Source of the DNA: Girardia tigrina
Taxonomy: Eukaryota
NCBI GenBank assembly: GCA_001938485.1
Contig: MQRK01227869.1
Coordinates: 1 to 64,000 of the forward strand
DNA: 64,000 nt
Direction of reading: 5' to 3'
Shown here: positions 24 to 57,356 of the stretch, in pieces
How positions within the stretch are numbered: position 1 is the stretch's first letter
Layout of the letters: the number at the start of each line of letters is the position of its first letter
The notes under the pieces: generated by a model
Database searches by the model: none
The model's input: only the letters and a program-made list of their open reading frames with translations
What the model was told of the DNA's origin: nothing
Translations under genes and position numbers: made by a program

Positions 24-812
24 CTATGATTTAATAAGAGACATGAGGTTCAGAACTTGGCTGAAATATACGAGTTTTCTCTTAGATAATAAATGTTGAT
101 ATCGAGAAAATGGAACAGGTGCAGAGTAAATAACCACTGACACTGATCGATCATTTTGCACTTGGATTGAAGCATCAATTTTAGGAATATCCTCCACGCT
201 CGAAATGATGCAGAGTAGCAAGGAGGAATCATATTTGATAACCTGAAAGCCATCAGGAAGATGTTGCTCTTCCATTAATTTCCTGTGGAGCTCTTCAAGG
301 GAATGGATTTTGTCCAATTCACGAATTCCTGATAGAAATCATCATTACGCTGCACTTCACGTAAATATCTCTCCTCAAACGTTGAGTTTGACTGTCGGTG
401 GGGAGGCAATTGTGATGTATAATACGATGGAAGATCAGGGAACTTGGATGGAAACGAATCATCTTTCAGATATCTAAAACAGCAATCATTCAATAAAAAT
501 GAACACAGTAATAGAAAAGGTATTTTACAAAGAAATAACTTACCTTTTCAATAACTTTCTTGGTCTTTTATTCTTCCGATCAGAATTTGTATCTCGTGTT
601 TCTTCCACAAAATCGTCCTCTTTAAAATCTTTGGAGCAAATGCGGGAATTACTATTCGGAGTGAAGTTTTCACGTGAGAGACGATGAAGCCACTTCTGGA
701 GTAAGACTGGATTGTTCAGGGGAAATTTGTGTAAGGTTATACCTGCTATATCTTCTTCAGAGGAAGATTTATAACCTGTTTTACAGCCAGGAACTGCACA
801 CTTAAAACCCAT
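24..812 (-). pseudogene. THAP-domain (P-element/THAP9-like) transposase 5' part, spliced, with frameshift and stop
   Basis: Exon 1 812..544 MGFKCAVPGC...LHKFP...KWL...RICSKDF is a THAP zinc finger (the His of C2CH is altered). GTAAGT...TTTTAG intron 543..474 (70 nt) joins in frame to RYLKDDSFPSKF (AVPTIF-box-like). Frameshift near 318 into ORF 24..317, which stops at 24-26. Confidence 0.8.
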
Positions 813-2603
813 GTGATGTGAAAATGAGAGAAAACAATGAGGCTTTTTCGTACAATTTCCATCAACAAATGAGAAGAGGCCTCACGCACCGACCCTTATA
901 CCTGAGGACTCAAGACTGATTCATCATATCATAGTTCACACACATACACACACAGAGGTTTTCAATGAGAATGACTCACTCAAGAATGATAATATACACA
1001 TCTGTTTGTACTTTTAAATATGAGATTGAACAAGTAGTTGAAAACGTATTTATATGCTTCATATCTATAGGCCTCATGTTGTCTAAAGCGAAAAAATATT
1101 TGAAGTGGTTGTTAGTCCAGATGCTATTATACAGGGGTCCATGACCTAACCAAAAACGTGGGGCATAGAAATGATCGATTGTTACTAAAAAGCAGTAAAG
1201 AAAAATAACATAAAAAATCACAAAATAATGCTTTTCATACTTAAAATTTAGTGAGATTTTTTAAAATAATTAACAGTTTTCTCTTTTCAAACTGGCCAAG
1301 TTTACAAAATGCTTTGTAGATTTCAAACCTTTGATGTTTCTACTATTTTTCTCTCATCTGCAATTTATACAAGAGTTTTATGTGTTCGTTAGTATTGCTT
1401 TCTTTTATTTGATATTAAGCAATATCTATTCAAAGTAAATTTAAATTAATTAATCTTTAAATTGTTTTTGATTGCTTTAATTATATAAAAAATATAATAG
1501 AAATATAGATTTTAGGTACCGAAAAAAACATTACGTTTCTTTTTTCTTGAAATTTATTTAAAAAAATACGTGAGAAACTAAAAAAATAAGAACATAATTT
1601 TCCACGACATTTACGAAGTCTTATGACATTAGGGAAATAATTTTTTAAATGTTTAACTATTTAAAAATAATTAACATAAATATTATTTTTAAATAATTAA
1701 CAATAATCACAATATTTACGAAAATGAAAGTTTATATTATTTTTTATTTTTTTAAATATTTTTATGAAATTGAGATTTTCGGGTGTTTATTTATAAATAA
1801 TATTTTAATGCGATATTATTCGGGGGTTTGATTTATTTAAGGATTAATTGATTTCGGAAAAACCCGAAAAAATGATGAGTATTAAAATAATTTAAATTGA
1901 AGATTGAAAATAATTTTATTAAATGATAATATAGGAGAATTACAATAATTATATGTCATCTACGTCTTATATAACAATGCTTATTGAAATTTTCAAACTT
2001 TCCATTCCACTTATTTCCTTTTAGTTTCAAGCAAATATATACTCAGTCGAATTTTATCATTCATAATTAAATTTGCGAGTAACATCGTCCTATGTCGTTA
2101 TAAACGGTAAAGTTTTAATAATATTTTTTTTCGTTTGGTTCCACATCATCTTATCAGTCAGGCAGCGTGGAACAAATCTGGAATATAGGTTTCTGATTCA
2201 TAACTTGTTGAAATTTTAGGAGACTGTGCGAGAGTCAGGTTCAGTCAAGACGTATATAACACTCTAACTTTTCGTCATAGGGTTAATAATTTCTCTCCTA
2301 TGGCCTTTTTTTCATCATCAAAAATAGAGGAACACCCACAATTTAACTCTCTCATTCAATCTTTTAAATATATCAACTGCAAAAAATCCAAGATTTTGCA
2401 GCATTTTTGTCTTCTGTATAACTAAGAACTGGTTATTAATGCAGTTTTCGACCTCTAAAATCATGACTAAAACGAAAATAAAATTTCAGTCGCAATATGT
2501 TGGTAACATAAAACTACCAATATTTAAAACATATATAAATATAGGTTTTCATGAAAATACATTTTGACACATTTTTCCCTTATCTGATCTGGTACTTAAT
2601 TAA

Positions 2604-3192: not shown

Positions 3193-3595
3193 TATTAACA
3201 ACATCAATATGAGTTTTACAACATTTATTAATATCACAAGCGCCTTCACTATTTGACATCTCTCTTGATCAATATTTTTCTGAGTTCACACTAATTATTT
3301 TCAATAAATGAAAATCTATTAATAAAAATTATTAATTATAAAGAATCTAATTGGTTAAAATTAAATCTTAACATTTTTAAAAAAGAACATATTAATCTAT
3401 TAAAATTTTAAATTACATTAAAAAATAAATAATACATTCAAAAATTATTTTAAATCTTTTTACTTTAAAATTAAATTATTTTTAATTAGTAAGAATCAAA
3501 GAAAATACCAATCATCCATCTGTGCAGGAGAGACACAATCCGAATCAACATACAACATGCACAATGTCAACACACAATTGCAAACATTCCTCACA
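3193..3595 (-). mobile_element. Solo LTR, gypsy family A (TG...TA termini)
   Basis: Highly similar to the LTR next to the PBS/gag at 63521-64000; perfect 5-bp TSD ATAAG (3188-3192 and 3596-3600). Confidence 0.92.
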
Positions 3596-4343
3596 ATAAG
3601 TATACACGCTTGCTCTAAAATGGCGGATAATCAGGTGATTAAAAAATACAAATGGGTTAAGTCCGATTGGCGACGAGTGACATTTGCGTGAACTTGGAGT
3701 GTGTATCATGTGTGCATTAGATCATACATTGCTTACATGTTTATTTTGTCACTGTTTAATGAATTAAGTTACTGTTAATGTATCTTTTGTAGTTTTTATC
3801 TTTTAGTTCATAGGTTTATAATTTTTTCTTCTATATTACGAAAAATTATTGTTAAGCGCAAATAACTTTTTAGCAACTGTTCAATCAAGGTAATAAAGTT
3901 TAAATTCAAGCTATGCAAAATTATTTATTTATTCGACAAAGTATAATCAATTATGATCAATTTCTATTATCCACTTTCTTATAGTTGTTATATCAGGCAA
4001 AGAATTTTAAACATAAAATTTCAATGTAAATAACGTCCCAGAGTTATGACCACTCAAAACATGAACCATTGATCAGAAAAATACAAATCTGGCACATCAT
4101 GGGGCAAAATGTTAAAATTCTTGATTTTGGATTTTTTTTGTTTTGTTAAATCTGCAGTATGTGAAGATGCAAAACATACGTATTTTCATTGATTATTAAG
4201 GGATAAAATTATTTATAATATCATACACAAAATACCTCGCATATAGTATTGCGCATGATCATAAGTTAACTCGTAAGGAAACTCCTGATACAGTTTGTTA
4301 ATTTCACTAATTTCATGCTTACGATGTTTCAACGGTTTCACAC

Positions 4344-5969: not shown

Positions 5970-6710
5970 ATATCTGAATTCATTTTTTAACACCAAAATT
6001 TATTAATATAACAACAATTCACATATTTAAACAAATTTTTCTGTTAATTTAATTATCTCGCCACAAATTAATCTATTAAATTTGTTCGATTCAATTTTTA
6101 AAATCCTGAAAATTTATTAAATAATTTTCACATTAAAACTAAAAATTTATTTTAAAATTTATTTAAAATTGTTTCATAACTTATATTAAAATATATAAAT
6201 TGTTATAACTGTAAAAATATTTTTATTTATAAATAAATATTTAANNNNNNNNNNNNNNNNNNNNNNNNNNNNNNNNNNNNNNNNNNNNNNNNNNTTTTAA
6301 AATTTATTTAAAATTGTTTCATAACTTATATTAAAATATATAAATTGTTATAACTGTAAAAATATTTTTATTTATAAATAAATATTTAATATTTAATGGT
6401 TTTCTTATCATTTCTAATTTTAAGATATTTAATAGATACATTAAAAAGATATTTTTATTTTTAAATAGTTATTTAATTTTTTTATGATTTTCTTTTATTA
6501 TATCATTTTTAATTTTTTAAAATATTTAATAAACACATTAAAAACATATTTTATTTTTAAATACGTATTTGATTTTTTAATAGTTGTTTTATTATATCAT
6601 TTTTTAATTTTAAAATATTTAATAAGCATATTAACATTAAAATATTTTACCTTAAAAATTAAAAAAATAATAAATTATTCTGGCGAGATGAAAATTTAAA
6701 TTAACTCCTC
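5970..6710 (+). mobile_element. AT-rich non-autonomous repeat; second copy inverted at ~25195-25685
   Basis: ATAACAACAATTCACATATTTAAACAAA and CTCGCCA/TGGCGAG segments match the reverse complement of 25195-25685. Confidence 0.6.
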
Positions 6711-9142: not shown

Positions 9143-9950
9143 ACCCGTCGAATGTGGCCCATATGTATGACCGGCCAGGTCATCTGATTTAATACCACTC
9201 GATTTTCTTGTGCGGGGGTATTTGAAGAATGAAGTGTATAAGAGAAAACTAGAAACAATTCAGCAACTTAAAGATTTTTGTGAGGAATATTTGGTGTGTG
9301 TATGTTTATGAATTATGTTGTATGTTGATTTGGGATTGTGCTTCTCCTAACCAGATGGATTATCAATATTTAATTTTTTATAATCTGAAACTAATTTATT
9401 TAAATTTAGATTTAATATTCAAATTTTTAGTTTTTATTATTGCAGCTTTTACATAATTTTAATGATTTTATTTTTGTAAATTTTTAAATAATTAAAATCA
9501 AATTAATGTTTAAAAATGACTATAAAAATATTTTATTTCAGCCAATAAAATTTAAATTAAATATTTTTAAATAAAATAATTTTATCAAGTTAGTTCAGAT
9601 TATAATGAGAGATATTGAAAATTGAGTGATGGATCTAAGTGAAAGCAATACTATTGATCATCATAAAGATGATAAAAATTGTGAATGTAATAAATGTTCT
9701 GCCAAATGTGTGTGTTCTCTTAACAATTTTATTTGTCAAGAAGCGGCAAAAATAGATGGCGAAATGTGCCAAAATGCCATGAAGTCTTTTCATGGACGCC
9801 TTAAACATTGTATTGATGTCGATGGTTATTCGGTTGAATATTATTAAATTTTAATAAATGCTTTTTTGTTATTTCAAACCATTTTTTCATAATGTTTTGC
9901 CAAAGGAAGTTATTGCAGTTTAAAACCCGGTAGTTACTTTATGATCACTG
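9143..9950 (+). mobile_element. Tc1-like transposase C-terminal remnant with right TIR, split by a solo LTR
   Basis: Degenerate WPxRSxDLxPLDFxxxGYLKNEVY...TIQQLKDF, continuing after the LTR as ICQEAAKIDGEMCQNAMKSFHGRLKHCIDVDGYSVEYY*; ends ...ATGATCACTG|TA. Confidence 0.8.
9279..9725 (+). mobile_element. Solo LTR, gypsy family B (TG...CA)
   Basis: TGTGAGGAAT...CTCTTAACA with 5-bp TSD ATTTT; highly similar to 24727-25187. Confidence 0.9.
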
Positions 9951-17984: not shown

Positions 17985-18250
17985 ATAAATAAAAACAAAA
18001 TTTAACAATATATTTATAGACAATATATTTCGACGGACCAACCGTCATCTTCAGGTCACTAATTAATAATTAATTCACCTGTATATAAATGCGAAAATAA
18101 TGATTGTTTAATCGATTGCATTAAATAACGCTCATCAAAATTATGAATAAATTGGTTTAAGACTGCCGATTGAACATTGAATTTAGGGCAACATGACCTA
18201 ATTAACAATGCTTCACACGGCGCTCTCACAAAATATCTATCAATAACTAT
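17985..18250 (-). mobile_element. Penelope-like element 3' end (same family as the 20-kb copies)
   Basis: EALLIRSCCPKFNVQSAV GIY-YIG C-terminus followed by a hammerhead-containing 3' region. Confidence 0.8.
18014..18062 (-). ncRNA. Minimal type I hammerhead ribozyme (PLE-associated)
   Basis: GAC-CTGAAGA-T-GACGG-TTGGT-CCGTC-GAAA-TATA-TT-GTC: intact core, stem II GACGG/CCGTC, palindromic stem III, AUU cleavage triplet, stem I GAC/GTC. Confidence 0.75.
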
Positions 18251-20029: not shown

Positions 20030-20270
20030 TTTAAACAAAATTTAATTTATTGAACACAAAACTCATCCATTAAATACATATTTAGAGACAGTATATTTCG
20101 ACGGATCTACCGTCATCTTCAGGTCACTAATTAATAATCAATTCACCTGTATATAAATACAAAAATGATGATTATGTAATCGATTGCATGAAATCATGCT
20201 AATCAAAAATTCTCAATAAGCTGGTTGAGACTGCCGATTGAACATTGATTTTAGGGCAACGTGACCTAAT
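20030..20270 (-). mobile_element. Penelope-like 3' end, left arm of an inverted pair, with hammerhead at 20082-20130
   Basis: Near-perfect reverse complement of 20490-20715; hammerhead CTGAAGA...GAAA with U16.1 changed to C. Confidence 0.8.
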
Positions 20271-20379
20271 TCGCGTTATATGATGCAGGTGGTGATTTTG
20301 TTTTCGTTTATGTTTTATCATGTCTATTAATAATTCTAATTATTTAAATAAAAGTAAATTTGTTACACTGAATAAGACA

Positions 20380-20720
20380 TTAAATTATTTAAGAAAATTA
20401 TTTGGAGTTTTTAGTTAATATTGATAATTTCAAAATTCTGTGTGAGCATTTTGCCAGTTATTGGGAGAGTGTCAAGTGAAGCATTGTTAATAAGGTCACG
20501 TTGCCCTAAAGCCAATATTCAATCGGCAGTCTCAACCAGCTTATTGAGAATTTTTGATTAGCATGATTTCGTTCAATCGATTACATAATCATCATTTTTG
20601 TATTTATATACAGGTGAATTGATTATTAATTAGTGACCTGTAGATGACGGTTGATCCGTCGAAATACATTGTCTATAAATATATTTTTTAAATGAATGAG
20701 TTTTGTTTTGAATAAAAAAT
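20380..20720 (+). mobile_element. Penelope-like 3' end, right arm of an inverted pair, with mutated hammerhead at 20631-20678
   Basis: FKILCEHFASYWESVK*SIVN / EALLIRSRCPKANIQSAV; hammerhead core reads CTGTAGA instead of CTGAAGA. Confidence 0.8.
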
Positions 20721-21719
20721 TATCATCCGGATTTCATTTTATCAAAATTTAATTTAGTTTTATTTAATAAAATTTAACTTCAGTTGAATTTCATTACAAT
20801 TTATCAAACCATTTGAAAGTTAAATTAATTAATTCGGCATTTATTTTCGGAAGGTAATATAAAGTTCTAAAATAACTTAATTTGTAATTTCCTCCATTAC
20901 ATTTACTTATAATTAAACACATCCTTAATAATATATACTAACATATTTTCTTGTTTTAATTTCATTTAAGTTTGAATTTATACAAGTAATCTGGTACATT
21001 ATACATTATTTCAAAGACGATCGAATATAATGTTTCTTTTGGATTAAAAAAAGGACAACCTTGACAAGAGTTTGCTATTTTCGGTCTGCATTAAGCTACA
21101 AATTTAAAATAATTTAATATTGCTACCTGAAATAATTGTTCAGAAGGAATTTTAAATTTAATAGTCATTTAATGATTTTAACTTTTTGTCACCGAATCTT
21201 GAACAATACAAATAAAAGAAATAATAAAGTATGGGAAATATGTTTAATTAGTAGGTTAAACTCCTGAGGGATGTGAATTCCGTAAAAACTCATGAATATT
21301 TTGTTATCACATAATTCAAGACATATGCTTTATGGTTTTCTAAGTTATCAATTTTTGTAAAGTACAAAGATCAGTCAATGATGTTTTGCCTGTTTTCCTA
21401 TATAACCTTTTTCCATTTGTTAGGGATCTCCAAAGTTCTTCGTTTATTGAAAAACTTTTCTTCATTTTAAGTGAACAATGTATTGATTTAGAGCATCATT
21501 GGAATCAAACGTTATGTTTCGCAAAGCTTTTTGAAGAACACAAAACAAATGATGCACTGAAATGCTAATGTAGGAAGGTAGGGTTGGTGTGACAGTACAA
21601 CAAAAAATTCCAATATTTTTCAGTCACGTTATATTTTAAGAAAAATAAATAAAATCTGAGCCGTTATTTGATTGCATTCACTTCAGTTTCCCGTACCTTG
21701 ATATCTATTTATCCTATAA

Positions 21720-22305
21720 TAGTAGGAAAAAAATGGGCATTCGGCCCACAACCCCCCCGGGGGAGTCAACCGTTACCATGGAAACGGTTCCAGTTACCCT
21801 AGCAACAGTTCCAGTTACCATAGCAACGGTCGCGGTTACCATTGCAACTGTCGCGAACACCATAGCTACGGTTCCGGTTAACTTGACAACGCTTCTGATT
21901 GGTTCCCGGTACCCTAGCAACGGTCGCGATCATCCAAAAACGCTTCTGATTGGTCGGTGGTCCCCTAGCAAAGGTTCTAATTGGTCCCCGGTTCCTTGGC
22001 AACGGTTTTGATTGGTTCTTGGTTCATTAGTAACGGTTTCGGATATCTTAGCAACGCTAACCAAGGTGCCGTTTACATTAGCAACGGATAAAGTGATTCA
22101 AGGTGATTGTAACCATGGTAACGGTAACCGTATCCATAGCAATCGTAGAAAAAGTGCTAATTGATCGTTGAACATTGCTTAAAAGTGCTAATCGATATTT
22201 TAAAGTGCTAATCATTACTGTACATTGTGCCGCACATTTCTAATGTGCTGGCACAGTGCTTTTTACGTTGCACATGTGCAAAAGTGCAAAAATCAATACA
22301 ATTGT
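21720..22305 (+). mobile_element. Unclassified dispersed element carrying an RFX X-box / CCAAT-box array (copy 1)
   Basis: Starts TAGTAGGAA...ATGGGCATTC as at 61269; 21-bp-period GTTACCATGGAAAC, GTTACCCTAGCAAC, GTTACCATAGCAAC, GTTACCATTGCAAC; CTGATTGG boxes; 3' GTGCT/GCAC-rich segment shared with 62300-62430. Confidence 0.7.
21772..22143. promoter_or_regulatory. Cluster of RFX X-box-like palindromes and inverted CCAAT (Y) boxes
   Basis: Matches to GTNRCC(N0-3)RGYAAC-like sites at 21772, 21793, 21814, 21835 and 22109, plus degenerate units; ATTGG boxes near 21895, 21945, 21977, 22008. Function is inferred from motif only. Confidence 0.5.
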
Positions 22306-23929
22306 TCATTATTTCTATGTACCAATTGTATACATCAAAATCGATAGGCTGGTTACTTTATAAAAGTGTGACATATACAACATCTTTCATTGATCGTTTG
22401 CGTACCATCAGTTGTAAACATTGCACTTCTCATAACTTATTTTTCTGAAGCTTTCGTTTGATTCACCTCCGTTATGTATAATAAGTATTTGGCTTATGGT
22501 CAAAGAATTGAACTTGTTGATGTAACCCAAACATCTTTCAGGGGTTGTAAACATTTGAGTGATGAATATATACCATTTTTCCGTCTCTCCAGTTATACCG
22601 TGATGGGGTGATCAGTAGGATCAAAGCGAATGAGTCAATTTCTTCTCAAAGTCAACCTATGTTACCTGTAGACAAAATGCTTCATTCCTTTTTCGACAAG
22701 TAAATAATATTGAGAAACTTCTACAAAAATCTATTGAGATGAGATATAGTTTTAGTAAAAATAATATCTTTCTAATAAACTAGATTTTTTTAACAGAAAT
22801 TAAACTATTTTATAAAAATATTATTCCATGTTTTTAATAAAATTTAGTACTATAACCACAAAAAATATTATCAAATTAACTTTGATCATAGTAAAAAATT
22901 ATCTTAATGAAAACACGTATTTTAAAATATTTTAATAATTATTCTAATTATTATTATAATTACAGAAAAAATAAATATGGATTTTTATAAATTAATATAA
23001 TTATTAATGATTATCATATTACGTATTTGTTTTCTAATTATAAAATAAAAAAATTAAATATGTATGAAAAATAAATGAAAAAAAGCATTTCAGGTGGGTA
23101 ATCTTTTATTACTAAAAACTGACATAAAAGTTCCTTAAAAAAGACATAAAAATAATGAATATTTATTATATAATAAAATGTTTTTTCTTTTATTTATAAA
23201 ATGACAACATAAATGGGAACTAAATTTTTAAAAACTAGTAATAATTTTTGTAAATTAAATTTTCAACAATTGAAAAAAGCAATTTTACTGTAAAACTTAT
23301 TTAATAATAAAAATTAATTAAAAAACACAATTCCATTAAAAACAAATTGTAATAAATTATGGCTTCTGTAAAAACTAATTTCGATTTTCACTCAATATTT
23401 ATTGGAGAAACATCAACCTTTATCAAACAAAAATATTTTCCCCTTCAGCCCTTTTGAATCGATTTATATTTCCTATTAAAAAAAGGACAACAATAAAATT
23501 AGTTATTTTATTTACTTTAAGTCAACATAAATAATAATTAAAACCAAAAAAATGGTTTTTTATCCAACTTAATTATGCCATTTGTAATAATTTATAAATA
23601 ATTGTATTTTTTCATCATTATTTGTCATAAAACTATTATAATTCTGTGGTGATCGACATTTTCGGTCAGTCGAAAAATTCAATATTAACTTACAAAAATA
23701 TTTAAATTTTTTAAAATTAACTAAATGAAATAAATATGACAGATATGATACAATACAATTTATATTAACTTAATACGTGTGATTTGAAAATATAAATGTC
23801 TTGCTGTAATTTTGTGGATTCCGATCAAATAAAATGATTTATGATGAATTGTTTCGTCTTATTTTCCTGGAAACCGAACTTGTCAGTAACTGTTTCACAT
23901 TTGCTGTGTTGTCGGTACGACTAATGTTT

Positions 23930-24120: not shown

Positions 24121-24726
24121 AATTGTTTTCTGAATTTATGTCTCCTTAACAATGTCTTCATTTCCTACGACGTTACTTCAACCTTCATTACGACTGTTGA
24201 ATGTTGATCGTGTGTAATATATATTTATTTGTTATATTTTTTATTTTTGCTTTATTTTTTGGCCTGATTGATGAGGGTAAAGATTAGTCAAAGAAAAAGA
24301 AAATGATATTCAAGAAAGAAAGACAAAGACCGTGGAAAAAACTCCCCGTTCCTCTTAATATTTTATAATAATTATAATAATATGATATTCAAATTTGAAA
24401 TATCATTGATTATTAAATGTTTAGAGTTAAAAATAAATGCAACAATTATGAATAATTCTGATGATGCATTATTTATCCATGATTTTTGACTTTTTATTTT
24501 TTATTTCAATCCTATCCAAAGGAGTCCATATTTTATCTTAGACAAGATTTTATTAATTTGTCAAGAGAACATCATAACTGAAGTAATATACTGTTTTATT
24601 CGTCAACTTTTTAAAAGAAAAAATTTTTTTGTCATACAATTTTGTTTGTTGTCATCCATTCTAATACAATTCCTGTAATTAATAGTTTTTTTTGCGAAAT
24701 TATATTATATAATTGTTCATTCAGTT

Positions 24727-25187
24727 TGTTAAGAGAACTCACACATTTGACAAAACATTTATTACATTCACATTTCTTATCATCTTTATGATGATCAATA
24801 GTAATGCTTTCACTAGAATCCATTAATCAATTTTCAATATCTCCCATTATAATCTGAACTATACTTAATAAGATTATTTTATTTAAAAATATTTAATTTA
24901 AATTTGATTGGCTAAAATAAAATATTTTTATAGACATTTTTAAACATTAATTTGATTTTAATTATATAAAAATTTACAAAAATAAAATCATTAAAATTAT
25001 TTAAAAGTTGCAATAATAAAAACCAAAAATTTGAATATTAAATCTAAATTTAAATAAATTAGTTTCAGATTATAAAAATTAAATATTGACAATCCATCTG
25101 GTTAGGAGAGGCACAATCCCAAATCAACATACACATTTAAACATGCAAACACTACAAAAAACAATTATACACCAAATATTCCTCACA
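24727..25187 (-). mobile_element. Solo LTR, gypsy family B (TG...CA)
   Basis: Reverse complement of 9279-9725; TSD CAGTT at 24722-24726 and 25188-25192. Confidence 0.9.
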
Positions 25188-25194
25188 CAGTTTA

Positions 25195-25685
25195 TTATGG
25201 GTTAATTTAAATTTGTATTTCGCCAAAATAGTTTATTATTTTTTTAATTTAAAATTTTAAAAAAAGTAAATAAATACAAAAGTGTAAAATTAAAATAAGG
25301 AAAATAATAAAAATTAAATACTTATTTAAAAATAAAAATATGCTTATTTTAATATGTTTATTAAATATTTTAAAATTAAAAATGATATAATTAAGAAAAC
25401 CATTAAAGATTAAATACTTATTTAAAAATAAAAATATTTTTAGTCATAACAATAAAATTTATGAAATAATTTTAAATAAATTTTAAAATAACTTTATAGT
25501 TTTAATGTAAAAAATATTTAATGAATTTAAAGTTTAAAAAATTAACTAAATTTTAAAAATTGAATCAAAAGAAAACTTTAATAGATTAATTTTTGGCGAG
25601 GTAATTGAATTAATAAGACATTTGTTTAAATATGTGAATTGTTGTTATAAATAAAAATTGTGGTGTTGAATTATGAATTTTGATT
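25195..25685 (-). mobile_element. Second copy of the AT-rich repeat at 5970-6710
   Basis: TGGCGAGGTAATT...TTTGTTTAAATATGTGAATTGTTGTTATA matches the reverse complement of 5990-6065. Confidence 0.6.
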
Positions 25686-36862: not shown

Positions 36863-37264
36863 TATTAACAACATCAATATGAGTTTTACAACATTTATTA
36901 TTACCACAAGAGCATTCACTATTTGACATTTTTCTTGATCGATATATTTCTGAGTTCACACTAATTATTTTCAATAAATGAAAATCTGTTTATAAAAATT
37001 ATTAATTATAAAGAATAAAATTGGTTAAAATTAAATCTAAACATTTTTTTAAAAAAGAACATATTAAAATTTTAAATTACATTAAAAAATAAATAATACA
37101 TTCAAAAATTATTTTAAATCTTTTTACTTTAAAATTAAATTAAATTATTTTTACTTAGTAAGAATCAAAGAAAATACCAATCATCCATCTGTGTAGGAGA
37201 GGCACAATTCGAATCAACATACAACATGCTCAATATCAACACACAATTCAAAACATTCCTCACA
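36863..37264 (-). mobile_element. Solo LTR, gypsy family A (TG...TA)
   Basis: Same family as 3193-3595; TSD AACAT at 36858-36862 and 37265-37269. Confidence 0.92.
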
Positions 37265-40200
37265 AACATAACTGAGATTTTTGGAATAACTGACGAAACA
37301 AAGGAGAATGACAAAAAATATTTTGTTCAAATACATATTTTAAGTGGATTTGTGTAGATAATAATTTTAATTCCATAAAAATATATGTTAAAAGAATACT
37401 AACTACTTTATGTAATGAGAAAGGACAATGGCAATATGTAAATATAGTCTATACTCTATAGACTTTGTGTCGTGAAACATTTATTCTAAGATAAAGTAAA
37501 ATTGAATAAAACGATTTTTATGGGTTTTCTTAAATTTTTGAACTAATTAATAAATAATAAACGCAATATACATGATACATAATTAATCCTATTAAAAGAG
37601 TTTTGTCCTCTAAAAGAGAGAGCTTTGGACACTCGAGAGAAGCAGATAAGTCGGGATTTGAGCAAAGATTATCAGACTGAAAAGGTTCGGAAATTCCCGG
37701 AGAATTAAGGTTTTGTGACTAAAGGTGTTCAAAATATTTCAATTTTAAAATACTCCGCTGAATATTGAAGATATCGATATTACCACCAGAACAAGAATGA
37801 AAAGCGAGAAGCAAAGACTTTAATTTTTGAATTTTCAAACAATCGATTTTAGCGTTACTCGTTAATTGGTCATCGTCTTTCCAGTCTATGATCCGACATC
37901 CTGGTCGAAGAATCGATATAGAATCGAATCTATAGAACTGCTTTCAGGAAATGTCACTTTGTAAAATTTTTCATATTCAGTTTCAAACAAAGAATCCATT
38001 TGAAATTTAGATGTTTTACTAATTTTCTGACCAAAATTCAATATTTACAAAATTTTCCTTTTTCAAATATCCAAAAAATTATCAATAAAAAGATCGAACA
38101 ACTCATAACGTTTCGTCAATTCAAAAAAGACATATTTTCATGTAATTAAACATATTTTTCAAAAAATCGCCAACTTATCAACAAGCAAAATAATCGATTT
38201 AAACAATTTCGATTTGAACAAAAATCACAGTTCTAATTTTTGGTAACTTTTTCCAAACCAATACAACCTTAATTCTAACACGTTAAATTCGTCACGTGCA
38301 CAAAAACATACACAAACACACATACACAACACACTCACATGCTCGAACTATAAATACCAATCCCAAACGTACACAAACAAAAAGTTCGATCGATTCAATA
38401 CGATTTGGATTAAGTTGTATTTCTGATAATTTTGTTTTTTTTTTGAGAAATTTGATTAATAATTCTCTGATCAAAAGCTTCAAGAAGACGAGATCCAGTT
38501 GAGTTATTTGTGCTTAGTTTACAGTGTTTTTTAGCTTCAGTAATAATATCTGCGGCACAACTGGTTTTAGAAAGTGCGACTTGTATTTCAAAGTGATCTT
38601 GAATGTTTGTATCAAAAAAAATGAAACTAATTGTTGCGTCGTTTCGACTTCATGAATATGAATTTTCAATAGTTGGAAGTAGAGCCTTTTTTAAATTTGT
38701 TGAAAGTGCTAAAGAATTGTTTGCTGGATTGGACAATGGTTGATGATTTGAATTTATTAATGCAACATTTTGAGTTGGTTTACCTCGGGGCAAAATAGCA
38801 TTGATCTGAGATTGAATTTGAGAACTAATTCAATCTGTAAGAGTTCCTTCAAAAGTTGTTCGTACAGGGTCACTGGGTCATTTTTGGAGCCATGGGAAGG
38901 TAAAACAGGTTCATAAAGTTGTATTTTGCTAACATCTGCTTCAGGAATATTCATAATCAAGGCTTTAAATGTATCCATATACCGATACTTTATATAATAT
39001 GTAAATATATATATAAGATGTAAGTAATAAAGATACCCACTCAATATCGGTCTCAATCCAGCGTACAGCAGTAACGACACTTGTATTTCAATTTAGGTTT
39101 ATGACATTTGTGTTGTTGATATTGACTTTCAGTTCTAAATCTAAAAGGACTTTGTTTATAATGTTCAAATTTCTGATTATGTCTCTTCTATTAGTGTCAA
39201 TTAGATAAAGGTTATCCCAATAGGCTAATCAATTAATCTCCCCGAAGCTTCCTTCTTCTGTTTTCATCTTCACTAATCCTGATAGTCCTTTTGATACTAC
39301 AAATTTCAATACTTCTTACATGTAATCTTTATGGATTTAGAGAAACCATTCAGTAGTGTCACCGAGAGTCTCTCTAGAGCTGTTTAAAGAGACAAGAGAT
39401 AAAGAGTTGGAATGCTTGATCTTTCTACAAGGGGTTTGAAGGATCTATTGTGACAGAAACCTTCAAAATGAACCAGAAATAAGACAGGATTGTGTGTTAG
39501 ACCCCCTACAGATTAATAATTTACTCTTCAAGTGACCCTCGCTCCTTGAAAGGAATTAAACCGGTGGCTTTTTTTGAGGTCATAGGACGCTGGAAATGCT
39601 TTAATATTGCTCCCCCTAAACGGGGATCTACACGGTACGCGTCATTGCAAGACTGCTCAATCTAATTGATGAATAAAATCTATTCAATCGGATATCATAG
39701 CAGTGCTATCTCACCATCGACCACGTAGTCCCGACTACCACTGCCTTCACACCCAGATTATTACAGCTAAGCCTTGTAAGTGGATTGCAAGCCCACTGGT
39801 GCTATGATTTTCTGTCGGCACAGAGATCGACTAGCTTAGAGACGGAATGGAACTCAATCTAGTTTTCCCAGGGACACTACATGAAAGTATGTCCAACTGA
39901 CTTACAGACGATCCCTCTCCAATGTACGAGTTTCTACACCAGTGACATGGAAATTCATTAACAAGATTAAATTAATATGCACAAAACTGTTTTCTATTTT
40001 ATTATCAAGAGGAGTACTTCGGGTTTTAATGAAAACCTTCATGAACAATATCTAGTAAATATACTTAATTTACCATTTAACAGTTAATTTAATTTAAAAA
40101 TTATTATTCAGTTATTAATAATATCTCACAAATAATCTTAATAAATGTGAACAAAACATTATAAAGTATAATTTGTAAATAAATAATTTTTCAAATTATA

Positions 40201-41708: not shown

Positions 41709-42024
41709 TTTTAAGCAAAATATTAAAAAATTTTTATTTTTAAAAATTTTTTTTATATACTTAAAATTTTAAATTAAGTTTTTTTCATAATTCAATAATT
41801 ATTATTTGTCTAAATACCAGACTCTTTTGACCATTTATTTAATACGTGTTTCGGAGACTAAATTAAATAAGTAATTTTATTTTTAAGAAATAACATATAT
41901 ATTAAAATACATTAAGACTTGTTTGTCGTTGTCTAGATTTAAAGATGCGTAATGGAAGTTTGATATCTATTTTAAATTGAAACATGTTGTTTTATTAGGT
42001 TTAAAAAAGATAGTACTTCGAAAA

Positions 42025-42461
42025 CATTTTTGCACATTTTCGTAAGAATCAAAGCGCTGCTGAGCAAGTGCGTGACCCATCGATGCAAACAAATGGTAAT
42101 CTGAAGGTGAATAAGCCGCATGAGGTAAAACTTCCCAATTCATTTCTTCCAACATGGCGCGAACCGGTTTTGATGTATGTGACGAAGCGTTGTCATTGAG
42201 ATGAATAACCTTGTGTTGCCTTTTGAGGTATTCAGGTCTTTTTTGAAGCAGCGAACAGTTTAAATCGACAAACTGTTGTTTGTAACGTTCAGTAATCACC
42301 GTTTCACCGGGTTTTAATAGTTCATAATAAATTACACCCTTCTGGTCCCACCAAACGCAGAGCATTGTCTTTCTGCCAAAGCGATTTGGTCTGGCTGTCG
42401 ATGTGGATGGCGTACCCGGGTCTACCCATGATCTTTTTCGTTTAGGATTATCAAAATAAAT
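42025..42461 (-). pseudogene. Internal fragment of the mauritiana-type mariner transposase, inverted relative to the element at 43751
   Basis: IYFDNPKRKRSWVDPG...MLCVWWDQKGVIYYELLKPGET...YSPSDYHLF; appears identical to 44493-44724 where they overlap; no TIRs. Confidence 0.9.
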
Positions 42462-42540
42462 AAAAAAATGTTTCGTGTAATTTGAGTTTTTCTTATAAAT
42501 ATGAATGACACTGAAAGTAAATATATCGATACTATAATAT

Positions 42541-43743
42541 TAGGGTTTGCAATACCAGTATTACCGGTTTTTGGAAAGAAAGTTAACTTCGGTAATACCG
42601 GTATTATGGAGTTTGAAAACCGGTATTAATATTAAGAATGAAAAACTTTCATCCAAGTACAATATTTATACTCTTTATTTCTGAAATTATTATTTTTTAA
42701 TTTAATTTTTAGTCAACTTTTTTTTTAATTAAATTTGGTTTAGTAATTTAAATTCTTTTTTATTTACAATTTGAAATAGGTTAGTAATTTATTTGTTTAA
42801 TTTTAATATTTTCTATTTAGTATTTTAGTATTTTTAAATTTCTTATTAAAATAAATATGATTTGCTCAGTCAAGGAATTCGCTTTCAATAGTTGTGTGGA
42901 GTAAAATCTATCTATTTTTTTACTTTTTAGTTTTGGGGTTTCGTATTGCGTTTACTAATAAATGTTAATAAATAAATATGATATTTTTAATATAATATAT
43001 ATTTAAACTTTTTAAAATAGAAAAAAAATTAAAGGGGTTAAATAAACAAATAAATAAGCTGTTTTCTAATAAATAAATTTATTTATATAAATAAATTTGA
43101 CAATAAGAGAAAATATCAGGAAGTTCGTGCTGGAGGAATTATCTAAACAAAATAATTAGTTAAGTAGTAAACTAAAGGATATTTTGGTTGAATTCATTGA
43201 TGAAAGACGAACAATATTCTCAGATTTATTGGCTTTCTTACACAATTCAGACAGTTACATAAATGATGACGATGAATATTTTCAAATCTTCAATAAAAAG
43301 TCGAGGACAACTGAACTGAATTGTTGGAACGTTTATATCCTGTGTAAAAAAAGTTAAATGCTGCTGGGGATTTACCAGTTCAAATCATTAACAGTCCAGA
43401 GACAGCGCAGGGATCTGAATCAGAAAATTTGTCAATGAAGGAAAAATTACATTTAATGATTTAAAGAAAAATTGTTTAACTGATAGTACTGAAGCTGAAA
43501 GACGCGAACAAAATATTGAAAACATGCTCAAAACAAAACTAAAACTGTTAGATTGTCTTATCCTTCAACACTTAGGATTATTAGAAAAAGTACTGTCATT
43601 TATATAATATATCAAGACATGAATGATTTTTAAACAGCCTTATTTTTCATGGCCAATACCGGTATTACGGTATTACATAGTTTTGCAAGAAACCAATACG
43701 GGTAATACCGGTATTGGAAATATCCTGTATTCTGCATTCCCTA
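42541..43743 (+). mobile_element. Non-autonomous hAT deletion derivative
   Basis: TIRs TAGGGTTTGCA / TGCATTCCCTA; repeated subterminal AATACCGGTATT at both ends; 8-bp TSD TATAATAT / TTTAATAT (right copy split by the mariner); internal remnant RRTIFSDLLAFLHN. Confidence 0.8.
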
Positions 43744-43750
43744 TTTAATA

Positions 43751-44911
43751 TTAGGTGTACAAGTATGAAATGCGGATTTCAGAAAATGGATTGTGCACAA
43801 TGCAAAAAGTAGGTCAATGGTTAGGCAATGATGTCATAATATTGAGTAATTATGTAGTGTCTCATACGTAACTCATAAATTGATAAAGCGTTTTAATAAT
43901 TGTTGTATTTCTGTGTTTTAGATGTCCAAATTTATGACAAGCAGGGAGCATTCGCGGACGGTACTAATTTTTTATTACCATCTAAAGAAAACTGCTGCTG
44001 AATCATTCCGATTACTCCAAGAAGCTTATGATGAATATGCCCCATCGCAAGATACATGTGAACGATGGTTTCGGCGCTTCCATGGTGGTGACTTTGATGT
44101 TGCAGATAAGGACCATGGGAAACCACNNNNNNNNNNNNNNNNNNNNNNNNNNNNNNNNNNNNNNNNNNNNNNNNNNNNNNNNNNNNNNNNNNNNNNNNNN
44201 NNNNNNNNNNNNNNNNNNNNNNNNNNNNNNNNNNNNNNNNNNNNNNNNNNNNNNNNNNNNNNNNNNNNNNNNNNNNNNNNNNNNNNNNNNNNNNNNNNNN
44301 NNNNNNNNNNNNNNNNNNNNNNNNNNNNNNNNNNNNNNNNNNNNNNNNNNNNNNNNNNNNNNNNNNNNNNNNNNNNNNNNNNNNNNNNNNNNNNNNNNNN
44401 NNNNNNNNNNNNNNNNNNNNNNNNNNNNNNNNNNNNNNNNNNNNNNNNNNNNNNNNNNNNNNNNNNNNNNNNNNNNNNNNNNNNNNNNNNNNGTTCGCTG
44501 CTTCAAAAAAGACCTGAATACCTCAAAAGGCAACACAAGGTTATTCATCTCAATGACAACGCTTCGTCACATACATCAAAACCGGTTCGCGCCATGTTGG
44601 AAGAAATGAATTGGGAAGTTTTACCTCATGCGGCTTATTCACCTTCAGATTACCATTTGTTTGCATCGATGGGTCACGCACTTGCTCAGCAGCGCTTTGA
44701 TTCTTACGAAAATGTGCAAAAATGGGTCGATGAATGGTTCATGGAAAAAAGGAAGACATTTACTGGCGAGGTATCCACAATTTGAGATATAGATGGGATA
44801 AATGAATCATTAGTAATGGAGCATATTTTGAATAAAGCTTTTTTATCGTTCTTTTGTTTTTAACGTATTTCTTTTCAAAATTTAATCCGCATTTCATACT
44901 TGTACACCTAA
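43751..44911 (+). mobile_element. mariner element, mauritiana (Mos1-like) subfamily, defective transposase 43922-44785
   Basis: Perfect 28-bp TIR TTAGGTGTACAAGTATGAAATGCGGATT (close to Mos1 AGGTGTACAAGTATGAAATG), TA TSD. Transposase has YSPSDYHLF instead of YSPDLAPSDYHLF and a C-terminal frameshift; the centre is an N gap. Confidence 0.95.
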
Positions 44912-46151
44912 TATTCTTGGAGGTAGTTGGTATCGCGTAACATTAAGGAAGCCTTAATTGGAGACAATATAGAGGATTTAAATACTAATCCAATTGGATT
45001 CCTTGAGGGGTTTGAAAGTAGTTAGAGGAGTAGTAACGGCTCTCGTTAGGACAAGAAAGGATTGATTACAATAATTGATTGAATCAGCTTGATTGATGAC
45101 CATCAAAAAAGCTTAATAAATTTGAAAAGGATAAAAGAAAATTTTGTCCACTAAATAGTAAATTAATATTTAATCCTAAGCAACTTAACACAAGTTTGAC
45201 AATGAAAATAATTTCAAAAAAAAACAAAGAATAAATATTTTTTCCGATTTATTTAACTTAAAATTAACATAAAAAAATAAAGAAAACAAAAACTTTATAA
45301 AAAAAAGAACAAATTTTTCACAAGTTCACATCGTGTCATTTTAATTCCGTCGGGAAAAATATTTTCCCGCCTTTTATCTAATTAATTAATTATAATTAAA
45401 TAAAATATTTAACAACCCGGTTTTGTTTTTTGGCAATATAATACGACACTGTCAAGCAACCGCAACAGGGGGGGGCGTGCAAGGATGGAGTAATAAAAAT
45501 AAAACCGAACCCCTAACGGAATTCGAAAGTGAATTCTGTTTTACCTGGAGAAATTAGACTGAAAAAAAATATTTCTTTTTCAATTAAAAATAATTTAATG
45601 AAACAAATTTTTATTGAATAATATTTGCAGGCAGTTAATAAATTTATAATTTCTTTGTGATGAATATTCACAGCCTGATTGAACATAACTTCTAATTATA
45701 TATAATGGACTCATCCACTGTTGGAAACACTGATTTATGTGGGCTAAATTTATGGGTTTTTGAAGCAGAGCTGATTGAATAGAGTAATAAAATGAAGCAT
45801 AGTTTTGCTCTAATTTATTGATGCATCAGAGACAAAATTTAGGATGGGATTAATGTCAAGTTTCATTTTAATTCATAATTTTCAAACCGGGACATATGTT
45901 TAGAAACTGGTATTTATTCAGTTAATTCACTCACTTTTGATAAATTATTGAAGTAAATTCATCAAAAAATATAAAAGGTTAATGACAAATTGTTCAGTTT
46001 TCAAAAAAAATTTTTTTATTTTAATATTTTATTTTTTCTATTTGATAAATATTCGTTTTTTCAAGCAGAAATTAATATAAAAATATTAATTAATTTATTA
46101 ATAATTGTTTTTGTTGGAAATATCATGGAGTCATAGGGTGGAGTAAAAGGT

Positions 46152-49230: not shown

Positions 49231-49476
49231 GTTGCTTTATATTTTGATGATTTCTTATATTTCTACTGAATAATCTTTAAATATTTTAAAAGAATATAAA
49301 TAAACTTAGAAACATAAATGTTCATCAATTATCCGATATTGATATTAAAAATTTAACAATGACAACAACAAAATGTTGAGGTTCATGGATGTTTGATTAT
49401 TAGACTCATCGACGGTGACATTTAAGATGTTCTATAGAGAACAATTTATTTCGACTTCCAGATCATCAATATACTC

Positions 49477-49725
49477 GGCAGGCACTATGAACACCCGCCG
49501 GTAACTATCAACTGATCATCTGTCTTCAATTCCTTTTTAAGATCTTTTCATATTCACTGCTAGATCGTTAACAATCACGACAGGCACTATGAGCACCTGC
49601 CGGTAACTATCAACTGATCGGCTGTCTTCAAATCTCTTTCAAGATCTTTTTCTTATTCACAGCCAGATCGTTAACAATCACGTCAGACACTATGAGCACC
49701 TGCCGGTAACTATCAACTGATCGGC
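49477..49725. repeat. ~102-bp tandem repeat (about 2.4 units) plus a diverged partial unit near 49963
   Basis: GGCACTATGAGCACCTGCCGGTAACTATCAACTGATC-like at 49481, 49583 and 49686; related CGGCAGGCACTATAAGCTCCTGTCG at ~49963. Confidence 0.9.
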
Positions 49726-49999
49726 TCCCAGCAATATATTTTAGCATATGTCCAATTTATATCTATACTCCACCAACCTCTAAAAACAATTAAAATTAAA
49801 AAACTCACAAAAACTGAAGATTGAAAAATTTATTAATTTGTAATCAACAACTAGACTAAAAACTTTCTGAACAAATAACAGATTCAAATGAATTTATAGT
49901 AATTCTTTTTTTCGAAATTTTCACATAAATATCGAGATCGCTGGACTTTGTGTCAACAGTTTCGGCAGGCACTATAAGCTCCTGTCGTTATCTGTCGAC

Positions 50000-50300: not shown

Positions 50301-51806
50301 AGAAATTTTCCATCAAACTCAGTGCCCCCGTAATGAATCGGCCTGATGTTGATTGAGAAATTTCTCGTTCCCAACACATTAGTTTATTATACACTGTATC
50401 TTGTACAAGTTTATTTTTTTATAAAAACAGATGAGTTAAAATGGCTTTAACATGAAAGTAGGGTCCTGTGTGATTCAAGAACAACGTATCATTCGACATT
50501 ATGTTTAAAATTGGTAATATTATTTTTGACCATTATATGCATTTCTATAGATTTATTTTGCTCATTTGTATAACTCATTTTGATAGGAATAACACATGCT
50601 AAAATGCACATATTCTACAGAAAAATGTTTAATAATACTTTTAAAATATTTCTTATATATACTTTAATAACAATTTATTTGCATTGATTGTGGTTTATTT
50701 CCACCACAAAAATTTTATTCTAAATTATAAAAATAATTATTTTATATATTTAACATTAAATTATATTTTAATATTATCCGATAATAATATTAATTTCTAT
50801 ACAATTAGTTTTTGTAATAAAAATAACGATTAATGGTTAATTTATTATTTATTAAAATAATAAAAAAAATATTATTATTTTATTATATTTTATTTATTAG
50901 TTTTATGTTAAAAATGATTTAATAAAATCTGATTTGAAACTTTAGTTAAAGAGAACAGATGAAATTAATTTCACAAAAATAAATTTAATTTAAACAGAAT
51001 AAATTTCTTTTAATATCTGAATATTTAATTAGTTATTTCTTTGATTTTAATATTTTTAAATTACTTTTAAATTAAATGAATAAACATAATCTTTTATTTA
51101 AAAACATTAAATATTAGATATTATTCTATCGTAATATCAATCGATAACAAAAATTTTAATCTAAAGATCATTTTTAAATCTTATAAAATACAAAGTATTT
51201 TCAGCAATAAATCTCAAACTCATTGAGATTTGTGTTCCAATCTTGTTTATCAATATTCTTGTAATGGGCACTAAAACGGTGCGAGTAGGAGGCTTATCGA
51301 ATTCAGGCAAACAGTTCTGCTAAGTTGAATTGAACCAAGAGGATCGGTGACTGTATCCCTGATAAGCAGAAAGCACTAGACAATCACCGGTAAAAATCAG
51401 ATTACCGAGCTACCATCTTGCCTCGCTTAATCTGATGGGTCCAACTACGGTCATCAATAAAACTAGCCACGCGACCGACCATCCTCCAATCCGATGTCTC
51501 TAACAAATTATATCAAGCAAAAAAACTCAGAAGATGAACAACAAGCTGTATTAGATCGCAAACATATTCACAATTGCTAATCATTTTTGTGTCTATTTTA
51601 AATTTCGTGACCAATTTGTATTTTTCGTTATGTGCAATTAAACAAAAGCTTTATTTTTGAATTTGTGATTTTATTTACAAATTTTACATTTTTTAATATA
51701 CTGATGCGAGAGTGTTTGCAGCGTTTATGTGGTTGCGGCACGTCTGAGTTGGGGGGCGGACTCCGGGTCGTGAGGAAAAACTAATCATGATCTTACTTGA
51801 AGATTC

Positions 51807-52076
51807 CACACTTTTAAATCGGAATTTTGCACATCGAGAAGTAAAAGGATCGATGATTCGTGATACATAAATGTAGATCAAACAAAACCATAACGCAGAC
51901 TGAGTGATAGATGCCATTGAATCAGTGTCTTTCAGATTATCTGTCACAGCAACATGCGAGAACTTTTTTAATTTCCCTCGAATAATGGTGATTCCTCTTT
52001 CATCGGACGAGATCAATTCGAGCACTCTAATCCGATAATGTCTCAGTCCAAATAATTCTTTCGCAGCGGCCAAATT
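51807..52076 (-). pseudogene. RFC4: Replication factor C subunit 4 fragment, intronless, internally deleted
   Basis: LAAAKELFG...RVLELISSDERGI.IIR.K.K.F...DSM...Q.AL..FCLI..YVSRIIDPFTSRCAKFRFK matches RFC4; Walker A is absent, and Walker B (IILDEA) and RRTME are deleted. Confidence 0.85.
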
Positions 52077-52247
52077 AGTCAAAAACATTAATCCAGTTTT
52101 ATCGGCAACTTTGAACGTTTTGTCCCCATTTTAGACTTTCATTTCATTAGTTTGAACCATTTTCAGAACCACAAACATCGATGAAACACGTTTAGCAATC
52201 AATTTCAAATCTCAAAAATGCGCAATCGACTCTTTGGTTTCGGTCAT
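52077..52247 (-). pseudogene. SOSS-B / SSB1 (NABP1/2-like) OB-fold N-terminal fragment, fused in frame to the RFC4 fragment
   Basis: MTETKESIAHF*DLKLIAKRVSSMFVVLKM...TFKVADKTGLMFLT aligns with hSSB1 [20 protein letters not shown]...TCKVADKTGSINIS; two in-frame stops. Confidence 0.7.
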
Positions 52248-56291: not shown

Positions 56292-56705
56292 TATTAACAA
56301 CATCAATATGAGTTTTGCAACATTTATTATTATCACAAGCGCATTCACTATTTGACATCTCTCTTGATCAATATATTTCCAAGTTCAAACTAATTAATTT
56401 CAATAAATGAAAATCTGTTAATAAAAATTATTAATTATAAAGAATTAAATTGGTTGAAATTAAATCTAAACATTTTTTAAAAAAGAATATATTAAATTAA
56501 TATATTAAAATTTTAAATTACATTAAAAATTAAATAATACATTCAAAAATTATTTTAAATCTTTTTACTTTAAAATTAAATTAAATTATTTTTAATTAGT
56601 AGGAATCAAAGAAAATACCAATCATCCATCTGTGTAGGAGAGACACAATCCGAATCAGCATTCTACATGCACAATATCAACACACAATTCAAAACATTCC
56701 TCACA
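56292..56705 (-). mobile_element. Solo LTR, gypsy family A (TG...TA)
   Basis: TSD ACGAC at 56287-56291 and 56706-56710. Confidence 0.92.
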
Positions 56706-56957
56706 ACGACAAAATTTTTCCATTCATAAAACAGTCAATCAATATCCTACAAATTAGTTCAGTTGATCCATAATCAAAACTAATCTACGGTGAAGGACAT
56801 AGAACTTTTGAATATTGACTTATTTTATTTCTGCATTCAGAAAACTGTTAGTTCATCAATTTATTTGTTCATCTTCTTTTGTTAATTAAAAAAAATATTA
56901 ATTAAGTAAGGGATTTACTAAATATAGCACATTTATAATAAATAGTAATAATTATTT

Positions 56958-57313: not shown

Positions 57314-57356
<43 letters not shown>

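Follow-up and report, generated by a model that had tools for sequence, protein, structure and literature searches.

Two copies of a non-coding element were found in the window, the whole 64-kb stretch of DNA that was analysed. Each copy carries a tandem array of 14-bp palindromes resembling the X-box of RFX proteins together with CCAAT (Y) boxes, and one copy interrupts the pol gene of a Ty3/gypsy element. The module is best read as the terminal cis-acting part of an unclassified non-coding mobile family, these members of which would be non-autonomous or truncated. We judge the chances to be about even that the array acts as an enhancer/promoter or open-chromatin module recruiting host RFX, and probably NF-Y, for the benefit of the element itself.

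Copy 1 spans 21720 to approximately 22306 and copy 2 spans 61269 to approximately 62406 or 62443; both are non-coding. Self-BLAST aligned them in two pieces, 21720-21982 with 61269-61482 at 68-77% identity and 22155-22300 with 62260-62406 at 83% over 147 bp. The best conserved part between the copies is the block of GTGC words in the second piece (83% versus 68-77% for the X/Y array). An earlier reading made from the letters alone (the sequence-only reading) had described a conserved left end recurring at 61269, and this was borne out by an alignment of about 100 bp that extends into the first X-boxes and whose score was equalled by 0 of 2000 shuffles. That reading lacked the recurring right-hand GTGC block and the location of copy 2 inside the gypsy pol gene.

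Features of the two copies and of the gypsy gene that flanks copy 2 (window positions).
Feature	Positions	Strand	Remarks
Copy 1 left end, sharp	21720-21771	.	TAG start; aligns to 61269-61320
Copy 1 hairpin 1	21734-21748		Within left end
Copy 1 hairpin 2, C/G	21752-21763		Within left end
Copy 1 minisatellite	21772-22143	+	14 scored X-box-like units; TRF periods 21 and 31; one decayed unit near 21929
CCAAT/Y-box	21895-21902	-	Within the extended (+10 bp) spacer of a 31-bp unit
Second CCAAT/Y-box	21946-21953	-	One-mismatch variants at 21977 and 22008
Copy 1 GTGC-word block	22146-22306	.	Short palindromes; homology ends at ...AATCAATACA
Copy 1 tail	22307-22346	.	Right end could reach an AATCGAT word common to copy 2; weak gapped alignment
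Gypsy N-terminal RT fragment, left of copy 2	60963-61268	-	Pfam RVT_1, E 1.3e-11; 65-72% identity to relatives
Copy 2 left end	61269-61318	.	Abuts gypsy RT reading frame (KGIIEK, minus strand)
Copy 2 X/Y array	61319-61760	+	12 scored units to 61597; Y-box 61446; 68-77% identity to copy 1
Copy 2-only segment	61761-62250	.	AT-rich, 17% GC, 490 bp
Copy 2 GTGC-word block	62251-62406	.	Followed by 62407-62441, element or gypsy
Gypsy protease and pre-RT of the same pol, right of copy 2	62442-62970	-	Pfam Peptidase_A2_2; tblastn and frame alignments to relatives

The 52-bp end common to both copies contains two small hairpins. These lie at the same offsets in the two copies and, by eye, show one two-sided pair change and one broken pair; their folding z-scores were not significant, with energies inside the shuffled range, and the RNA folds of the two left ends differ from each other. 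The fold of the copy 1 GTGC block gave a z-score of about -2. Both GTGC blocks contain repeated AAAGTGCTAAT-type words, AATCGAT/AATCAAT words and short palindromes. Within the copy 2 array a GTGC-like stretch (about 61598-61668) is followed by more decayed X/Y units, and the copy 2-only segment, which may be a nested insertion or part of the element, contains a separate 21-bp tandem (61806-61887) as well as a 62-bp palindrome (62111-62172) and a direct repeat (62142-62194 and 62206-62259). Outside that segment, near 61597, there is a word ATGCAAAT that we take to be octamer-like. Because copy 2 has the extra inner GTGC stretch, the additional X/Y units and the AT-rich segment, the copies look like reshuffled subfamilies. 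A search of the window by nhmmer with seven element parts detected no third copy; two candidates for further copies, a CCAAT at 15524 and words like TAGTAGGAA within gypsy LTRs, are unrelated.

That the element is mobile and non-coding, as the sequence-only reading had proposed, is supported by the insertion of copy 2 into the gypsy pol gene (minus strand), between protease and RT, with a left junction that is sharp at 61268. In intact gypsy relatives, the last motif that can be followed on the right side and the first one on the left are separated by approximately 32 residues; thus up to about 31 gypsy codons are missing at copy 2, or about 20 if 62407-62441 is still gypsy. Neither copy has a convincing target site duplication (TSD) of 5-10 bp; letting the ends slide brings up only 4-bp matches, at chance level. 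An inverted second arm or second terminal inverted repeat (TIR) was found neither in the copies nor in the 64 kb; on both absences the sequence-only reading was correct. Near 22850 a possible 6-bp duplication, which has no TIR, was put down to chance, the DNA there being AT-rich. Pfam scans took in 340 of the 365 N-free stop-to-stop open reading frames (ORFs) of at least 45 aa, the other 25 being other frames over mariner, gypsy and 18S pieces. A coding function was rejected, as ORFs over the arrays belong to no credible Pfam family, and the flanks of copy 1 gave no Pfam or Atlas match to an autonomous partner. An RNA gene was likewise rejected: no tRNA was found, no Rfam family reached its gathering score in the whole window, and the copies gave only sub-threshold chance matches. 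A prokaryotic or phage origin was also rejected, with no blastn match in 50,697 phage records and a 22-mer shared by the copies absent from GTDB contigs.

The core of each unit is the 14-bp X-box-like palindrome. Palindrome plus 7 bp makes a 21-bp unit, and a 31-bp unit has a spacer 10 bp longer that carries CTGATTGG or a variant of it. The sequence-only reading had X-boxes starting every 21 bp, and the four 14-mers that it named do so (21772, 21793, 21814 and 21835), the pure 21-bp run being confined to the first six units (21772-21877); the spacings that follow are 31, 51, 31, 31, 21, 30, 37 and 21. The strict RFX consensus GTNRCC-N0-3-RGYAAC, as printed in the available text of 10.1101/2022.11.11.515474, is matched exactly by two of these four 14-mers and with one mismatch by the other two. 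In the 64 kb it has five strand-hits, all of them inside the two copies; exact units number three in copy 1 and one in copy 2. Allowing up to one mismatch raises the count for the window to 18 strand-hits, of which 16 fall in the two copies; shuffled sequence averaged 1.0, and none of 100 shuffles got as high as 18. RGYAAC half-sites number 20 in 816 bp of array versus 64 in the 62,506 bp elsewhere, and a perfect right half is kept in 12 of 26 units. According to the accessible part of the same source, RFX uses one strict and one lax half-site, and a monomer can bind a half-site (10.1101/2022.11.11.515474). Additionally, the unit at 21814 is by eye 13/14 identical to the DCDC2 X-box, which the text available reports to be bound by RFX1/RFX2 in supershift assays (PMC5024701).

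Because repetition multiplies one event, single units were tested by shuffling, a comparison that the sequence-only reading had proposed. An RFX match proved rare: when a 21-bp unit was shuffled, an exact one arose in 118 of 200,000 trials that kept mononucleotide and 59 of 20,000 that kept dinucleotide composition, and an RFX site with up to one mismatch arose jointly with an NF-Y site in 5 of 200,000 and 3 of 20,000 shuffles, respectively, of a 51-bp unit, figures that overstate significance since the motifs were picked after the sequence had been viewed and many other factors could have matched.

Variation among units was analysed in 26 consensus-anchored units; a spurious row at 22057, two rows past 61597 and the decayed unit near 21929 were set aside. 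Of the 26 units, 24 have A or G at position 9 (G in nine), and G never appears in the 52 unit positions of A12 and A13. On unit trees A13 never changes and A12, G10, C6 and T8 need one or two changes, compared with 10-13 for R4, N7 and R9. The minimum number of changes per column averaged 2.0 for fixed right-half, 4.5 for fixed left-half, 7.8 for degenerate and 6.3 for flank columns; fixed columns differed from the others at p=0.013, in units that were chosen with the RFX consensus, with some circularity, and that are not independent of each other. The toggling of R9 beside a nearly fixed G10, A12 and A13 is the pattern predicted for RFX, with its one strict and one lax half-site. RFX-like behaviour of the units is supported in that their sequence and their pattern of variation both agree with an RFX site.

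An unbiased wrap-around alignment, in which all 21 columns have equal weight, was weaker, giving p=0.065 by column for core against spacer. Conservation of the core did not exceed that of spacer positions +1 to +4 (p=0.25 to 0.40), and the flanking GGT is as well conserved as the fixed X-box positions. Identity between the copies was 52/64 in the core, 28/31 at spacer +1 to +4 and 40/66 at the other spacer positions. Since spacer +1 to +4 is as conserved as the core, the constrained word appears to include the right half of the X-box and to reach beyond it (AACGGT). The two analyses thus give a mixed answer to the expectation that substitutions would avoid the X-box cores, with p=0.013 for the fixed columns of the anchored units and with +1 to +4 equal to the core in the unbiased alignment.

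A constrained word that passes the X-box, with +1 to +3 as fixed as the core, would suit a subterminal array bound by the element's own transposase or recombinase, in which case the palindrome merely resembles an X-box. Ends of hAT, CACTA and Harbinger elements carry subterminal binding arrays, repeated palindromic sites close to the ends are typical of DNA transposons, and the array here, itself a series of palindromic sites near an end, begins 52 bp from a sharp TAG end. Nevertheless, we consider this explanation unlikely. There is no second arm in either copy, and palindromy alone produces an RFX match in only 176 (exact) to 964 (up to one mismatch) of 400,000 random perfect 14-bp palindromes. 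It leaves unexplained both the A/G toggle at R9 and the presence of exact NF-Y-type boxes as the only inserted module, and the GTGC block is a better candidate for the role.

A second explanation is a neutral minisatellite within the mobile element, without present function and grown by slippage or rolling-circle copying from one X-box/CCAAT promoter fragment that arose by chance or was captured. Tandem amplification multiplies one event, so that neither the counts nor the 21-bp phasing are independent; the element holds another 21-bp tandem, which is AT-rich; and the unbiased conservation test is borderline (p=0.065). The strongly uneven variation among columns, with 0-2 changes at C6, T8, G10, A12 and A13 against 10-13 at R4, N7 and R9, is not expected from neutral decay, and we hold this explanation to be decidedly unlikely.

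The conserved +1 to +3 positions would also be accounted for if the array served mainly a Myb-family factor, alone or in competition with RFX. The Myb consensus, YAACKG, lies over the right half-site and is often mirrored on the opposite strand; the two arrays contain 14 such sites, and AACGG directly follows 11 of the 26 units. However, shuffling a unit yields such a Myb-like 6-mer in 5-17% of cases, a Myb factor would leave the fixed C6, T8 and G10 unexplained, and targets of mouse A-MYB and RFX2 are mostly non-overlapping in the portion available of PMC4498915. A predominantly Myb array is therefore very unlikely. Least probable among the rivals is that the host has co-opted the array as an RFX/NF-Y enhancer here, or that the family acts as an RFX sink across the genome, which is the sequence-only reading in its strongest form. 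Helitron heat-shock elements (PMC6927752) and MITE-derived germline promoters (PMC9757741) are precedents. Against it, only two copies are present in the 64 kb, the window is strewn with decayed elements and gene fragments, functional X-boxes usually lie about 500 bp or closer to a transcription start site (TSS; PMC5838959), and co-option is unsupported, with no intact host gene close to either copy among the 340 of 365 ORFs scanned with Pfam.

Returning to the reading of the array as an RFX module, probably with NF-Y, we examined its Y-boxes. Exact CTGATTGG occurs in the 64-kb window only at 21895 and 21946 in copy 1, at 61446 in copy 2 and at the unrelated 15524, and alone it is barely above chance (four observed; 1 of 100 shuffles reached four). 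The exact boxes sit among weaker units, the 31-bp units scoring 8-9/11 and the 21-bp units 8-11/11 (p=0.022, units non-independent). The interleaving of X-boxes with CCAAT boxes described earlier is correct for the two boxes within the copy 1 array and incorrect for the four best X-boxes, between which there is none. Helical phasing, also described earlier, is seen in 22 of 24 intervals, which fall within 1.5 bp of whole helical turns. The intervals trace to only about four independent length events, of which 21 and +10 are in phase and 37 and 15 are out, at a chance of about 0.31 each. Phasing is weak evidence because it rests on these few events, and as a sign of selection it was rejected as underpowered.

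The sequence-only reading also likened the array to the X-Y module of MHC class II promoters, in which an X-box is followed by an inverted CCAAT. In the text available for MHC-II-type sites, the distance from RFX5 to CCAAT peaks at 29 bp (PMC4889920), and an X-Y spacing requirement is described (PMC4381081). At each of the three exact Y-boxes, the CCAAT centre follows the end of an X unit by 30-31 bp. These cases share ancestry, and by simple arithmetic a unit within 2 bp of the 29-bp distance is expected about one quarter of the time on a 21-bp lattice. The MHC-II module is defined by X1, X2 (CREB) and Y at fixed phase, in single copy and upstream of a TSS. Here inspection by eye found no CREB X2-type site in the spacers, no gene lies downstream and the units are tandem, so membership in the MHC-II X-Y enhanceosome was rejected. 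As far as the sections available describe that module, the array differs from it further in having no W box, in being mobile and in its invertebrate-type genome (PMC4381081, PMC4889920). The analogy thus extends to the distance and not to the CREB X2 and CIITA context, and the array would work at most like an X-Y module without being a member of the class.

Two copies allow no family assignment, the defining features of Helitrons, HINEs, Polintons, TIR transposons and solo LTRs being either absent or beyond what two copies can show. Both copies read T-AGTAGG at the left end, where the first base is ambiguous with two copies to compare. Polintons have a short terminal repeat of AG type, and Academ and hAT elements are TIR transposons with TAG ends and TSDs of 3-4 or 8 bp. 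An Academ/hAT-type TIR transposon was rejected, since the candidate ends of copy 2 agree over just 3 bp and no 5-10 bp TSD was found. A solo LTR would have a TG start, a CA or TA end, a 4-6 bp TSD, TATA and polyA signals and an adjacent primer-binding site (PBS) or polypurine tract (PPT). The minus strand does read TG...TA, like the gypsy LTRs of the window, but there is no TSD and inspection showed no PBS or PPT. Of the features of SINE/LINE 3' ends (a conserved 3' RNA stem-loop, a simple-repeat tail and a tRNA-like or other head), the short (CTA)2 end fits, as does the target loss; the RNA folds of the ends differ and there is no tRNA.

Helitrons, according to the available text of PMC4067079, have 5' TC and 3' CTRR ends and insert between A and T. 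The minus-strand end here is ...CCTACTA, the other homology end starts TG, and an A follows copy 2; canonical Helitron ends were thus rejected. The palindrome expected of a Helitron is 16-20 nt long and about 11 nt from the 3' end, with no TSD. The hairpin found measures 15-16 nt, and its distance from the end (14 and 11 nt) fits; it shows a single two-sided change, its folding is non-significant, and no TSD was seen. A Helentron/HINE was rejected on the absence of a TT target and of a 12-15 bp subterminal inverted repeat pair, which was sought among the longest 25 of 190 and the longest 25 of 120 inverted repeats and by inspection of the ends. Polintons, in the portions of the sources available, have paired TIRs of 100-1500 bp with a 5-8 bp TSD (10.1101/2023.08.22.554363) or a TSD of 6 bp (PMC10045372). 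A Polinton/Maverick, which the sequence-only reading had considered, finds no support, as there is no inverted partner in 64 kb and no TSD, and Pfam matched no pPolB, integrase or capsid among 340 of 365 ORFs, a scan that decayed fragments could escape. The element may still be a lone truncated Polinton arm.

We propose the following origin for an RFX module of this kind. The 14-bp X-box palindrome would first have been amplified as a 21-bp minisatellite, after which a 10-bp longer variant with an inverted CCAAT would have arisen and been re-amplified as 31-bp units and 51/52-bp higher-order units. Units would have been held near the RFX preference while active lineages diverged, and then carried into these two copies. 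Since the units appear to have been so held, we infer that host RFX binds the array, as a dimer on the best units and as a monomer on RGYAAC half-sites, and that NF-Y probably binds too. The element would thereby gain a ready-made enhancer/promoter or patch of open chromatin beside its own end, plausibly active in ciliated cells or in the male germ line. Signals for mobility would more likely lie in the hairpin end and GTGC block than in the X/Y array. The ends of adenovirus use host factors and offer a model for a host-factor-assisted terminal origin. A fuller version, in which an invertebrate family seeded genome-wide carries an RFX-NF-Y module with a selected helical register and an MHC-II-like distance and fires in ciliated or male germ cells, or at a terminal origin, is quite unlikely. 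In the texts available, every metazoan sequenced is reported to have RFX (PMC2873420), and the factor predominates at the promoters of genes of multiciliated cells in animals ranging from cnidarians to mammals (PMC5245798); RFX2 drives mouse spermiogenesis genes (PMC4498915). Germline use is plausible given this reach and the role of RFX2 in spermiogenesis.

Transposons bearing arrays of host-factor sites are known, with HSF-1 on Helitrons, NF-Y on LTRs and HIM-17 on MITEs, and the following comparisons extend as far as the available sections of the cited papers. The Caenorhabditis Helitrons are similarly mobile, lack a TSD and carry a dense tandem cluster of sites for one host factor, but the sites are for HSF-1, with binding and effects on genes demonstrated, whereas the RFX(+NF-Y)-like sites here are known from sequence; their 5' TC and 3' CTRR ends are absent here (PMC6927752). 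The NF-Y-bound LTR12/ERV9 and ERV1 LTRs share mobility, CCAAT repeats at fixed spacing and a partner site. Those are retroviral LTRs with E-box/Znf143 partners and a 19-bp double CCAAT, in contrast to the present CCAAT boxes, which are 31-51 bp apart, partnered by X-boxes and without LTR hallmarks (PMC4889920). The CERP2/CELE2 MITEs with m1m2 are also short and non-autonomous, with a two-motif regulatory module and possible germline activity, but unlike our element they have terminal inverted repeats, a THAP-protein binder and proven co-option (PMC9757741). HINE/DINE-1 Helentrons are likewise non-coding, with central tandem repeats, small terminal palindromes and no TSD, yet have the 12-15 bp subterminal inverted repeat pair and TT target that are lacking here (PMC4067079). 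Helitron minisatellites matching the helical repeat are reported in the text available of 10.64898/2026.08.08.743475, and the accessible part of a review of factors binding mammalian TEs contains no mention of RFX, NF-Y or MYB (PMC7778262). Full-text searches of an open-access collection, which leaves aside most subscription papers and all Repbase entries, showed no report of an RFX X-box array on a mobile element. If the binding is real, RFX, a regulator of cilia and spermatogenesis, would join the factors arrayed on transposons, and the units would form a natural series for RFX-NF-Y spacing outside vertebrate MHC-II genes.

The surrounding window is AT-rich (20-36% GC per 2 kb) with N gaps, and its CpG observed/expected ratio of 1.1 overall gives no sign of methylation-driven CpG depletion. 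By Pfam it contains decayed THAP, mariner, GIY-YIG and Ty3/gypsy elements, a mix that suggests an animal genome; matches were to TE-type domains, a few weak uninformative ones and one USP7-like fragment 16 kb off. Among the 340 of 365 ORFs scanned there were no Helitron or Polinton proteins in the 64 kb and no further DNA transposase adjoining either copy. A THAP domain ORF at 540-881 (minus; Pfam E 6.3e-16), followed by fragmentary frames, is probably what remains of a P-like transposase. Two decayed pieces of host genes, both apparently without introns, lie at 38413-38649 and 51696-52130 (minus): a USP7 C-terminal-like stretch (Pfam E 1.6e-05) and an RFC small-subunit-like stretch, the latter called by eye and with no database match. 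An isolated 18S rRNA fragment (56960-57350, across an N gap; Rfam SSU_rRNA_eukarya, 102 bits) is directly followed by a 119-aa ORF (57419-57775, minus) that looks Ashwin-like, with no Pfam or Atlas support. Mariner pieces at 41967-44942 are in inverted arrangement, 42025-42256 being 100% identical to 44493-44724 on the opposite strand beside an N gap, possibly an assembly artefact.

Several other repeats were observed. A 230-bp repeat occurs three times (18001-18231, 20039-20271 and 20461-20721; 85-91% identity), with two copies inverted about 220 bp apart that may be long TIRs of another element. Tandem repeats lie at 49454-49726 (103 bp, 2.4 copies, 90%) and at 6358-6648 (96-97 bp, about three copies), the latter with related sequence inverted at 25193-25679. 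A gypsy LTR family is present at 3193-3597, 36863-37266, 56292-56706 and 63521-64000, with diverged relatives at 9279-9726 and 24726-25187. Clean 5-bp TSDs flank three solo LTRs of the family, and a 5' LTR has a PBS-like word and gag behind it; in sense orientation these LTRs end TG...TA rather than TG...CA.
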